54,561 bases of DNA from an uncultured archaeon (GTDB taxonomy: Archaea > Altiarchaeota > Altiarchaeia > IMC4 > CAZEGI01): positions 5,692-60,252 of the forward strand of contig CAZEGI010000004.1 in NCBI GenBank assembly GCA_964512105.1, read 5' to 3'. Shown in pieces: positions 37,901 to 40,502 of this stretch. The translations under genes and the position numbers were made by a program. How positions within the stretch are numbered: position 1 is the first letter of the stretch; each line of letters starts with the position of its first letter. Under the pieces are notes generated by a model, which saw only the letters and a program-made list of their open reading frames with translations, did no database searches and was not told the origin of the DNA.

Positions 37901-38408
37901 TAACCAGGATGTTGTTCTCGCCCTCGTAGTACGAATACGGCCTGACAAATTTTACCTTGACCTGCTTTTCGCCGCAGTGCGGACACTTTTGATTGTTGTT
38001 CGAAACCTTTATGGCCCTGTTCCATATCAGCTCGACCACGTCCTCTGTGCGCTCGAGTTTTTTGTATTTTTCAATGTCATCGGGTTTCAACAGTATTCTG
38101 CTGCATGCCCTGCATGTCCCCCGTATGAGGTTGAATATCTCGCGCGCGTATCCCACATGGATGACCGGGCGCGTCAGTTGTATATGGCCGAAGTGGCCGT
38201 AGCACTCGCCCAATCTTCCGCCGCATGTCTTGCACCTTATCCCCGGGTCGATAACGCCCAGCCGCGGATCCATCAACCCGCCGTCGATAGGGTAACCATC
38301 ATCATCGTAGGTGTTCGGGTCGTGTATTTTCGCAACCGAAAGTTTCTGCACCATTCGCGGCGAAAAAATCCCGAACTCCATATGGTCGATTTTCTTTTGT
38401 ACTATCAT
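34929..38408 (-). CDS. rpoA: DNA-directed RNA polymerase subunit A, unsplit (A' and A'' parts in one ORF)
   Basis: N-terminus has the A' zinc motif ([17 protein letters not shown]) and [10 protein letters not shown]. C-terminal third has the A'' region [30 protein letters not shown] and ends [10 protein letters not shown]. The frame is continuous across ...[31 protein letters not shown]... Start set to ATG 38408 (MIVQKK) rather than GTG 38429. Confidence 0.93.
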   Translation of the reverse strand: [1159 protein letters not shown]

Positions 38409-38424
38409 TTTTACTTTAAACCTT
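38397..38424. repeat. direct repeat copy A of the rpoB'-stop/rpoA-start junction
   Basis: ttgtactatcatttttactttaaacctt is identical to 38678-38705. It extends to 31/33 through 38429 vs 38710. Confidence 0.9.
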
Positions 38425-38677
38425 GTCACCGGGCCCTCATCGGCCCATTGTGTTTTATTTTTTCAAGACCATCGAGCGAAGCGAAGATGAGCAAGAGGCT
38501 TTGCCTCTTGTCTCAGACAAGACCATAGGTCTTGCTGATGGTCTCTGTTTTGGTCAGCGCAAAACTGCTTTGCAGTTTTGGCTCCGAACGAAGCGTAGCT
38601 TCGTTGGACACAAAATCTTCGATTTTGCTGTCCCAAAAGTGCTTAGCACTTTTGCGTAACCTTTTGTTAAAAGGTTG
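38425..38677. other. structured intergenic insert: array of eight perfect stem-loops
   Basis: - H1: 38431-38446, GGGCC/GGCCC.
- H2: 38492-38510, CAAGAGGC ttt GCCTCTTG.
- H3: 38518-38534, CAAGACC ata GGTCTTG.
- H4: 38560-38580, CAAAACTGC ttt GCAGTTTTG.
- H5: 38587-38605, AACGAAGC gta GCTTCGTT.
- H6: 38611-38627, CAAAATC ttc GATTTTG.
- H7: 38634-38654, CAAAAGTGC tta GCACTTTTG.
- H8: 38658-38676, AACCTTTT gtt AAAAGGTT.
All were checked base by base. Confidence 0.85.
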
Positions 38678-38705
38678 TTGTACTATCATTTTTACTTTAA
38701 ACCTT
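38678..38705. repeat. direct repeat copy B of the rpoB'-stop/rpoA-start junction (contains the real rpoB' stop)
   Basis: Identical 28-mer, offset 281 nt from copy A. Confidence 0.9.
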
Positions 38706-40502
38706 ATCGCTCAACCTCAATTTTGGGTAGATACACATACCCATGAGCTCGTTCAAGAGCAGTTTGAAGGCGTATGCGATTTCAACGTTGTGCGTCGGCA
38801 CTTCGCCGCATATCGGGCATCTAACAGTTCTCTGCTCGTAATCCCTGAGCGCGATTAAACCGCATTTCGAGCAGACAGGAACCATAACGCGGTCCGATTC
38901 GTCAAGCAAGCGGTCCTTGAGCATCATTGCTGCCCCGTGCCCGATAAGACAGTCGCGCTCCATTTCTCCGAATCTCAAACCGCCCTCGCGTGCACGGCCC
39001 TCGGTCGGCTGTCTCGTCAGCATCTGCACGGGACCGCGGGACCTTGCATGAAGTTTGTTCGCGACCATGTGGTGCAGCTTCTGGTAGTATATAACACCGA
39101 TGAAAATCTCGGCCTCAAAACGCTCGCCTGTTGAGCCGTCGTACATAACCTCCTTGCCGCTGTCACTGAAACCGGTCTTCTTTAGCGATTTCCGGAGTTC
39201 GTCTTCGGATTCATTGTCGAATGCAGTTCCGTTCACGAATCTTCCTTCTAATGATGCAACCTTTCCGCCTATCATCTCAAGGACATGGCCAATGGTCATT
39301 CTCGATGGTATTGCGTGCGGGTTTATTATGAGGTCCGGAACAACGCCGTCCTTTGTGAATGGCATGTCCTCCTGTGGGACTATCAGGCCGACAACGCCCT
39401 TCTGTCCGTGCCTTGACGCGAACTTGTCCCCGAGTTCGGGAACGCGCTGGCTTCGCACCCTTACCTTCGCGAGTTTGTGTCCCTCGGTCGTTTCGGTAAG
39501 GAGCACGCAATCTACCGTGCCAGATTCCATCTGTCTCACTGTCGTTGACGTTTCCCTCCTGCGCTCCTCGACAATACCGTAAGGCCCGATTTCCTCGAGG
39601 AATCGCGGTGGTGATGTTTTCCCTATGAGGACTTCACCCACATCAACGTCTGCCTCGGGAATTATCAGACCGTCGGCATCCAGCTTTGCATAGGTCTCCT
39701 CGGATTGTGTGCCATCAACCTTTCCGAGCGGTATCTCAAAGAGGTCGCGCTGTCCCGAAGGATAAGTTCGTTCTTCGGTGACATATGTTCGATAGAATGT
39801 CGAACGCCCGAGACCGCGCTCAACAGCGCTCTTGTTCAGGATTACCGCATCCTCCATGTTGTAACCGGCATATGACATGACAGCAACAACGAAATTCTGA
39901 CCCGCAGGTCTTTTTTCGTAGTTCAGAACCTGGGTTATGTCCGTCTGAACCAACGGCATCTGAGGAGTATGAAGCACATTCGACCTGCTGTCAAGCCGTG
40001 AGTAGTAATTTGACGAGTATATCCCCAGACTCTGCTTCGCCATAGCGGCAGCCATCGTTACTCTTGGGGATGAGTTGAATTCAGGGTAAGGCGCAAAGCC
40101 GGCGCTTAACCCCAGAATCATGGATGGAACGAGCTCGAGATGCGTGTGCTCCTTTGTGAGTTCGTCCCTGGTTACCGCGATGTACGCGTTCTCCTCTTCT
40201 TCGGCATCCACATATTCAACCACACCTTCGTTTATCAAGTCCTGCAGTGCTATCCTTCCGTTCTTCAGCTGCTCTTCGTGTCTTAAGGTGAGTTTCGGTT
40301 TTCCGTCCTCGACAACTATCAACGGTCTTAAAACCCTGCCCCTGTCGGTGTATATCTGAACCTCATTGTTTTCCTCGCGGTAGCTTATAGATGCGGTGCG
40401 CGGCAGCTTGCCTTCTCTTCTCAGGTTTCTCAACCTTTCTGCAAGTCCCTCTGGTCGCGAATGTTCCCCCATCAGCCTGCCGTTAAGATAAACGCTTGCC
40501 AT
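38697..40502 (-). CDS. rpoB1: DNA-directed RNA polymerase subunit B' (C-terminal part of split RpoB)
   Basis: 601 aa. [29 protein letters not shown] and a C-terminal zinc motif CSKCG...CPICG. Confidence 0.96.

Follow-up and report, generated by a model that had tools for sequence, protein, structure and literature searches.

Repetitive extragenic palindromic (REP) sequences and bacterial interspersed mosaic elements (BIMEs) are palindromes of 20–40 nt that cluster at gene junctions inside operons, and bacterial REP elements stabilize upstream mRNA segments. MITEs (miniature inverted-repeat transposable elements) are small (50–800 bp), non-autonomous, structured and mostly intergenic units, with terminal inverted repeats of at least 10–15 bp matching a parent insertion sequence (IS) and direct target repeats of a fixed 2–10 bp at their flanks; some MITEs enter operons and leave them undisrupted. 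In fungal and algal organelles, double-hairpin elements and palindromic GC clusters form mobile units of one or two hairpins that spread intergenically and sometimes in frame into genes; the palindromic elements known from Rickettsia and Methanocaldococcus jannaschii are grouped with them. Variable target duplications of up to tens of base pairs are made by insertion sequences of the IS1634/IS1549 type and by target-primed retroposition resembling that of long and short interspersed nuclear elements (LINE/SINE-like), and retroposition leaves one end defined and the other variable. Here we compare these systems with a hairpin array found between the RNA polymerase genes rpoB' and rpoA of an uncultured archaeon of the Altiarchaeota (assembly GCA_964512105.1, contig CAZEGI010000004.1, forward-strand positions 5,692–60,252). 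This 54,561-nt stretch is called the window, and coordinates refer to it unless a locus handle (L followed by a number) precedes them. We read the array as one copy of a non-coding, multi-copy and non-autonomous mobile hairpin-array family that is native to some Altiarchaeota lineages and passively transcribed, and give this reading a probability of roughly 70%.

A hairpin array at a duplicated rpoB'/rpoA junction

The junction between the rpoB' stop and the rpoA start is present twice in direct orientation, as stated in an initial annotation of this DNA made from the sequence alone; a repeat search and a reading of the sequence both confirmed it (Table 1). The two copies are 31 nt long, differ at one position (97% identity, with a perfect 28/28 core), and lie 281 nt apart from start to start. 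On the coding (minus) strand they read GA[T/C] AAG GTT TAA AGTAAAA ATG ATA GTA CAA, comprising the last rpoB' codons and stop, a 7-nt spacer, and the first four rpoA codons. Besides the true end of rpoB', copy A holds a redundant rpoA ribosome-binding region with ATG and codons 2–4, and copy B carries, after a redundant rpoB' end, the ribosome-binding region and start of rpoA in functional position (ATG at 38408; the same gene is called in L081). The whole event of 281 bp is the sum of a 250-nt insert and one 31-nt junction copy. Both essential genes are intact because the duplication spans the rpoB' stop together with the ribosome-binding site and start of rpoA. The most conserved operon of the cell thus tolerates a structured insertion of this size, with duplication of the stop/start junction rescuing both genes.

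Removing 38428–38708 in silico leaves GAC AAG GTT TAA AGTAAAA ATG ATA GTA CAA AAG, which matches the layout of the corresponding junction in L001 (GAT AAG GTG TAA AA ATG ATA GTG). Among 13 Altiarchaeota junctions, seven are tight, ranging from an overlap to 10 nt (L001, L005, L009, L082, L083, L084, and L085). Because of this tight arrangement in seven relatives and the L001-like layout restored by removal of 281 nt, we conclude that the array is an insertion and the derived state, in agreement with the original proposal that a hairpin element had entered the conserved rpo operon. The accompanying expectation of a single junction in sister genomes held for these seven but not for three other deep lineages, which have different hairpin-rich spacers at the rpoB/rpoA junction: 229 nt in MAG126 (L002), 168 nt in IMC4 (L004), and in B52_G2 (L003) a spacer followed by a second rpoB 3' end (20/20), where the contig stops. 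The hairpins of these three spacers are of the same style as those in the window but show no homology to them. Clusters of perfect 3-nt-loop hairpins also occupy many other rpo and ribosomal-protein operon junctions in L002, L003, and especially IMC4, and none were seen in the genomes with a tight rpo junction.

Eight perfect hairpins, with stems of 7–9 bp and loops of exactly 3 nt, lie within 38492–38676 of the insert, as originally described, and account for eight of the 16 hairpins of this type found across the entire window; 71 non-Altiarchaeota archaeal rpo loci contained 1.46 of them per 10 kb. The hairpin units measure 17–21 nt, or up to ∼35 nt counting a bulged lower stem, and the arm ends CAARA...TYTTG and a second CAAGACC at 38464–38470 were found again, as was every other sequence observation listed in the initial annotation. 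Two of the hairpins, hp2 and hp5, are 24-nt inverted copies of one another (83% identical), both internal to the insert. The predicted folding energy of the insert is −113.8 kcal/mol, compared with −69.1 ± 4.9 kcal/mol for dinucleotide shuffles. With z-scores of −9.1 for the coding strand and −8.8 for the opposite strand, the insert is far from its shuffled controls, the comparison by which the annotation had proposed to judge it.

An assembly loop or chimera arising from a repeated k-mer, a concern already raised in the annotation, would be favored by the k-mer-sized repeat of 28–31 nt and by the fact that arrays do interrupt assemblies at other loci, but its probability is negligible. Three separate assemblies contain the insert and both junction copies identical to the window base for base: L081 (JGI 3300010319; 99.69% identity and 48 mismatches over 15.4 kb compared), L212 (JGI 3300022556; 99.53% and 37 mismatches over 7.8 kb), and L213 (ENA ERZ27245614; 99.54% and 36 mismatches over 7.8 kb), all without gaps. 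Together with the window, these four assemblies come from at least three samples and different pipelines, and they agree across the insert despite the 36–48 differences elsewhere. The same architecture of array plus duplication is, moreover, seen again at other loci. A search for empty-site alleles of the rpo array and of a second array next to a PPDK gene (described below) found the array unchanged in all four assemblies available per locus; the indels between L214 and L215 fall in a variable methyltransferase gene unconnected with the hairpins.

Arrays with their flanking duplications frequently lie at contig ends or scaffold gaps, as at L003 11642–11661 and in the N run at L088 ∼16110–16224, and arrays also end contigs in L113, L105, L127, L137, and L149. 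We count this placement as a signature of multiple copies. Hairpin arrays systematically fragment Altiarchaeota metagenome-assembled genomes by terminating contigs and leaving gaps in scaffolds.

The duplicated start opens a 58-codon open reading frame (ORF), also recognized in the initial annotation, that reads across hp1–hp6 and stops at a TGA forming the loop of the hairpin at 38506–38522. A genuine 58-residue protein, translationally coupled to rpoB', could be proposed on the grounds that the ORF opens with an ATG in the native rpoA ribosome-binding context and that gene callers annotate it, as a gene without a family, in L081 and L212. We consider such a protein very improbable: the ORF consists of palindromes and matched no Pfam family, its frame is lost in paralogous arrays through length changes in hp2 (21, 22, or 23 nt) and hp1 (19 or 17 nt), and a counterpart ORF of 77 codons in L152 has an unrelated sequence. 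The ORF is a decoy made by the duplicated start codon. Decoys of this kind (58 and 77 codons), along with shifted predicted starts, enter databases as hypothetical proteins.

Table 1. Features of the rpo region of the window, in order of transcription.
Feature	Coordinates	Strand	Remarks
rpoB''	40502–42016	minus	
rpoB' (RNA polymerase subunit B', 601 aa)	38697–40502	minus	Pfam Rpb2 domains 4–7
Junction copy A	38678–38708	minus	upstream in transcript; true rpoB' end GAT AAG GTT TAA
58-codon ORF (MIVQQPFNKRL...)	38513–38689	minus	begins at duplicated rpoA start
Hairpin-array insert, 250 nt	38428–38677	minus	core plus tail
Core, 133 nt, five hairpins	38546–38677	minus	from head C/AACCTTTT (slash, boundary) via hp1–hp5 to CGCTGACCAAAACAG
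hp1	38658–38676		core hairpin next to head
hp2	38634–38654		core hairpin
hp3	38611–38627		core hairpin
hp4	38587–38605		core hairpin
hp5	38560–38580		core hairpin
Copy-specific tail, 118 nt	38428–38545	minus	
Tail hairpins	38518–38534, 38506–38522, 38492–38510		
GCGAAGC motif	38476–38482		in tail
T4AT6 run	38450–38464	plus	in tail
Hairpin GGGCC-ctcatc-GGCCC	38431–38446		in tail; 5-bp stem, 6-nt loop
Junction copy B	38397–38427	minus	downstream; redundant rpoB' end and stop GAC AAG GTT TAA
rpoA, unsplit, 1159 aa	34929–38408	minus	A' and A'' in one ORF; Pfam Rpb1 domains 1–5
L30e	34622–34927	minus	
NusA-like KH protein	34198–34629	minus	

Paralogous copies and anatomy of the repeat family

A metagenome scan for the hp2/hp5 hairpin returned true relatives together with many unrelated matches. 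The core recurs at L139 12022–12154 (91.0% identity over 133 nt to window 38546–38677), where the array lies just past a PPDK gene, and at L186 6466–6595 (91.7% over 132 nt), where it precedes a tRNA-like gene; a shorter version is present in L113, a contig from the sample that also yielded L081. Tetranucleotide correlations with the window were 0.955 for L139, 0.83 for L186, and 0.85 for L113, against a same-species reference of 0.955 (L081), and the next-best relatives of the PPDK belong to Altiarchaeota. On the basis of the tetranucleotide match and the PPDK relatives, we regard all three as paralogous copies within one species. The initial annotation had suggested a search for related arrays, which are present both at unlinked loci of this species and in other Altiarchaeota. 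Bacterial hairpins of the form CAAAAGTGCC[AT]GGCACTTTTG that came up in the same scan were set aside as unrelated.

The family has one precise end and one variable end. In an alignment of the window, L139, L186, and L113, all four copies begin at the same base (C/AACCTTT, hp1), and this head base stands directly against the duplicated target in the three copies with both flanks readable (window, L139, and L186). From the head, the copies are colinear through hp5 to CGCTGAYCAAAA, beyond which they continue into unrelated tails of 30–118 nt. Orientation follows no rule: with respect to transcription, the head of the window copy lies upstream and that of L139 downstream. Across Altiarchaeota, units share CRAA...TTYG arm ends and GGACA/TGTCC linkers, and exact stems recur between or within genomes: CAAGACC is shared by the window and L003, and IMC4 has CGAAATTGC at two places. 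Because units start with CAAAA and end with TTTTG, neighboring arms are also able to pair across another 3-nt loop.

The variation among copies points to palindromes at the level of DNA rather than to selected RNA. The tip of hp2 differs among the four copies (GTGC, CTTG, CTTGC, and CCCA) while its arms remain perfectly complementary, hp1 of L186 has lost one base pair symmetrically, and the loop of hp5 is inverted in L139; these changes were read directly from the alignment, in which MAFFT misaligns the variable hp2 tip. Wobble pairs are absent from the perfect upper stems (∼63 bp in the window, read by eye), and folding is equally good on either strand. The compensatory C:G/G:C swap between 38560–38580 and 38634–38654, which had been taken in the annotation as a sign that structure is being kept, is real, but because of the missing wobble pairs, the symmetric 1-bp deletion and the flipped loop, maintenance of a DNA palindrome fits it at least as well as selection on RNA. 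Candidate maintenance processes, as far as the sequences suggest them, include copying of one arm onto the other, passage through a hairpin intermediate, and an inversion between the two arms.

Arrays in Altiarchaeota lie between direct copies of their target that measure 9 to ∼55 bp, far above the random control (mean best repeat score 7.2 and 95th percentile 10 for random positions in the same loci). The duplicated targets are 38 nt at the PPDK 3' end including the stop (L139, 34/38), ∼25 nt at the 5' end of the tRNA-like gene (L186, ∼22/25), and ∼55 nt covering a GHMP-kinase start and 17 codons, which yields the 77-codon decoy ORF (L152). Local targets of 27 nt (L162), 19 nt (L165), 17 nt (L149), and 9 nt (L086) are duplicated elsewhere, as are 17 nt plus a diverged extension at a gene start (L096), 37 nt spanning a tRNA-Leu 3' end and a further 12 nt (L127), and, in L003, 13 nt at a stop/start junction and at least 20 nt at the rpoB 3' end.

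Strain-level polymorphism was found in IMC4, where a 54-nt two-hairpin module (18 codons, in frame with the surrounding ORF) lies between the S5 and L30 genes at L086 20822–20884 and is absent from L087 (16170–16200) and L089, strains 99.7% identical to L086. Both flanking 9-mers of the filled allele are GCGGACAAG, and the empty allele reads GCAGAGAAG. A repeat family of a deep and uncultivated archaeal phylum is hereby defined by its boundaries, its paralogues, and its strain polymorphism. Literature searches found no description of these arrays. A 2024 survey listed Ca. Altiarchaeum hamiconexum as the most MITE-dense archaeon, with 146 per Mb, and its elements are undescribed there (PMC11602168).

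Relation to described systems, mode of integration, and effect on the rpo operon

The proposal that this is a REP/BIME- or MITE-like element survives in the sense that a repeated hairpin element has been inserted, but the arrays fail the defining tests of REP/BIME and of classical MITEs. Like REP sequences and BIMEs, they are non-coding, co-transcribed palindromes at junctions within operons, with units of 17–21 nt, in which hairpin sequence varies and pairing is kept. They differ in having perfect upper stems with loops of exactly 3 nt and an archaeal host, and the 5' GTAG/GTGG of REP/BIME is not conserved: window hairpins start with CAARA or AAC, and GTAG is confined to a 3-nt-loop linker (GGTAGCC) that some arrays on other contigs contain. 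REPINs, which are mobilized by REP-associated tyrosine transposases, make to our knowledge no target duplication, unlike the arrays with their 9 to ∼55 bp, and no gene for such a transposase was found in the ∼100 kb of this species searched. With MITEs the arrays share small size, structure, mostly intergenic position, and direct target repeats at the flanks, together with a non-coding core in multiple copies (at least four loci) and a 54-nt module polymorphic between 99.7% identical strains; they differ from MITEs in lacking terminal inverted repeats and any parent IS that we could see, in the long and variable length of their duplications, and in pairing one precise end with one variable end.

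The in-frame two-hairpin module of IMC4 resembles the double-hairpin elements in form, with different hosts and sequences, and we know of no description of double-hairpin or palindromic elements with long variable target duplications or with defined-head arrays of many hairpins. To IS1634/IS1549-type elements and retroposition the likeness is in outcome only, the arrays being without inverted-repeat ends, an A-tail, or a linked transposase or reverse transcriptase. Two further candidates were rejected: a CRISPR-like array (or ectopic spacer integration), since the hairpins differ from each other and nothing is duplicated but the local target, which changes with the locus, and integration at an attachment (att) site, since the repeats are again local target differing from locus to locus. 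The window produced no Rfam match at gathering thresholds (best sub-threshold score 20.4 bits against a gathering score of 44), blastn against phage and plasmid collections gave no match, and the head pattern was not found in IMG/VR.

We infer the mode of mobility from these sequence features, and the leading idea is a one-ended copy process, rather than cut-and-paste, because the arrays have a precise head and a variable tail, carry long duplications of varying length, and lack inverted repeats. A ∼250-nt array, made of the 133-nt core and a copy-specific tail, integrated at an originally tight rpoB'-stop/rpoA-start junction with duplication of 31 bp of target; synthesis would have primed on a staggered or resected target in a target-primed or template-switch manner, possibly from hairpin 3' ends. 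Arms would seemingly be kept identical via arm-to-arm copying or a hairpin intermediate. Insertions elsewhere in genes would be lethal, which would explain why surviving arrays bracket gene ends.

The array may instead have been made on site by repair or replication synthesis, through iterative snap-back priming combined with template switching where DNA had broken or a fork had stalled, with re-entry upstream of the point of departure giving the duplicated junction. Consistent with this are perfect stems with loops at the 3-nt minimum, the lack of terminal inverted repeats, the mosaic make-up of the inserts, the varying duplication length, and the array in L162, where successive stems are near-copies (CAAAACTGC, CCAAAACTGT, and AAACTGT) with common CAAAA/TTTTG ends, so that neighboring arms pair. 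A hairpin at the atpA/atpB junction of the window (8982–9010), composed of the last 13 coding bases and an inverted copy of them with the stop codon as loop, likewise fits. We nonetheless think this origin unlikely, since a 133-nt core that is ∼91% identical at unlinked loci, with conserved hairpin order and exact head boundary C/AACCTTT, implies that an already existing, defined-end array served as template, as opposed to synthesis de novo. The data would be compatible with template switching into other arrays, and to that extent on-site synthesis overlaps with the mechanism proposed above for a mobile family.

Several observations weigh against a mobile family. The 118-nt tail has no second copy in the ∼2.2 Mb of sequence searched (its CAAGACC hairpin is the sole part seen again, in L003), and comparison of ten delimited inserts found neither terminal inverted repeats nor termini in common. 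The filled and empty alleles of IMC4 differ by extra substitutions clustered within 20 nt upstream, which simple insertion or deletion does not explain. No transposase, integrase, or reverse transcriptase was tied to the arrays, and tblastn with IS608 TnpA and Escherichia coli RAYT (REP-associated tyrosine transposase) sequences gave no match near the arrays in the loci searched. A 157-aa TnpA of the IS200/IS605 family, with HUH and Tyr motifs, is encoded 0.9 kb away from the PPDK array (L214 13548–14021 and L216 11381–11854). The perfect hairpins on either side of it, GCGCCCGC-ttc-GCGGGCGC and CCCCGCCC-ttaa-GGGCGGGG, are GC-rich and unlike those of the arrays, and, as far as we know, its IS200-type family makes no target duplications. 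The L214 TnpA scored 137 bits on NF033573 (IS200 TnpA) and reached 26 of the 80 bits required by the RAYT model; in the ∼100 kb of this species that was searched it was the only mobile-element gene seen and the only Y1 gene, with no RAYT found. The presence of non-homologous arrays at the rpoB/rpoA junction of four deep lineages could, finally, reflect a selected spacer rather than neutrality.

Long variable duplications, one precise end, missing inverted repeats, and self-correcting palindromes place the arrays outside standard REP or MITE mechanisms, and an unrecognized insertion or repair pathway may operate. Tentatively, and with less confidence than we attach to a mobile family as such, the arrays might represent an undescribed kind of mobile DNA in Altiarchaeota: perfect 3-nt-loop double-hairpin arrays, with neither inverted-repeat ends nor a dedicated transposase gene nearby, that integrate by one-ended hairpin-based copying (fold-back or target-primed synthesis), duplicate 9–55 bp, and diversify their tips while staying palindromic. 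The long duplication would then be what enables them to colonize tight junctions, including those of the RNA polymerase and ribosomal-protein operons.

The insert could be a cis-acting RNA module under selection in the rpo operon, where it would provide a processing site, act as a stability barrier, or uncouple or tune the translation of rpoA relative to rpoB'. A structured RNA module had been offered in the initial annotation as an alternative, and our results disfavor it; we judge it improbable, somewhat more so than on-site synthesis. The very stable fold of the mRNA strand (z = −9.1) would suit such a module, as would hairpin-rich spacers at the rpoB/rpoA junction in four deep lineages (the window species, L002, L003, and L004), the arrays of IMC4 at many junctions of highly expressed rpo and ribosomal-protein operons, and the mRNA stabilization known for bacterial REP elements. 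Yet the opposite strand folds equally well (z = −8.8), the core also follows a convergent gene end and precedes a tRNA-like gene, so placed in both orientations, most relatives have no insert, 7 of 13 junctions are tight, and the spacers of the four lineages are non-homologous. The absence of wobble pairs from the upper stems and of any Rfam match at or near gathering scores also speaks against it.

The array of the mobile family would then merely be co-transcribed in the rpo operon, its transcript being predicted to fold as a string of hairpins. rpoB' ends normally in copy A and rpoA starts normally in copy B, and translational coupling between B' and A would be broken: ribosomes leaving rpoB' are expected to couple into the decoy ORF and stop 105 nt before rpoA, which would initiate independently at its own retained ribosome-binding site. 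The array is probably without a dedicated function, and we infer its neutrality; at most, judging by analogy, a REP-like role as mRNA stabilizer or spacer is possible.

Gene context and other hairpin elements

The RpoB' homologues at 100% and 77% identity are RpoB' of Altiarchaeota, and the nearest relatives of RpoB' and PPDK are all Altiarchaeota with ∼75–78% amino-acid identity. Genes at 44–54 kb of the window matched housekeeping Pfam families throughout, with no mobile-element gene among them, and a tRNA scan of the window found none.

A second cluster in the window, at 52560–52730 upstream of an M48 peptidase gene, contains longer palindromes (CGGATGTCATA-aat-TATGACATCCG, CCGACGACAT-ATGTCGTCGG, and TAGCAAAACACAT...ATGTGTTTTGCTA). 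Since 95% identical pieces of it recur at L152 6011–6109, directly upstream of the duplicated GHMP-kinase start, we regard it as another repeated element of the species. The atpA/atpB hairpin (8982–9010), in the A-type ATP synthase operon, is a perfect 13-bp stem with a 3-nt loop, reading AAAAACTGGTGGC-TAA-GCCACCAGTTTTT on the minus strand; its loop is the atpA stop and its 5' arm the last coding bases, and it resembles an inverted copy of the gene end.

Perfect 3-nt-loop hairpin arrays with stems of 10–11 bp and other sequences, such as GCTAAAACAC-ttc-GTGTTTTAGC or GGAGTTTGCGC-gtt-GCGCAAACTCC, were also observed in metagenome contigs of unknown organisms (L093 643–796, L159 1442–1557, L101 742–826, and L134 2053–2456), and this style of array may be wider than Altiarchaeota.

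Between convergent genes at 2111–2174 of the window lies a polypyrimidine/polypurine hairpin, CTTTCTTTCTT-agg-AAGAAAGAAAG, followed by GTTTCATCCCCAAAGAAAGAA. An 88% identical copy of this module (L186 6691–6755) is located inside the apparent intron of the tRNA-like gene, and comparable T-run hairpins, frequently located where operons end, are present in L127, L152, and IMC4; such modules may be bidirectional terminators. The tRNA-like gene itself (L186 6440–6800), for which ARAGORN makes no call, has an apparent intervening sequence of ∼90 nt between a 5' half (GGCCGGGATAGGGTAGTCTGG...) and a 3' half (...CCGAGTTCGAATCTCGGTCCCGGCC). It is preceded by the array with the duplicated 5' end, and directly past its 3' end comes another array head, which is degenerate.

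RNA polymerase subunit architecture is not uniform within Altiarchaeota. rpoA is unsplit (one ORF, 1148–1159 aa) in the window species, L082, L002, and IMC4 (e.g., L086) and split (∼840 + 358 aa) in L083–L085; rpoB, split into B'' and B' in the window, is unsplit (1085–1090 aa) in L002 (1322–4579) and L003 (8306–11578).

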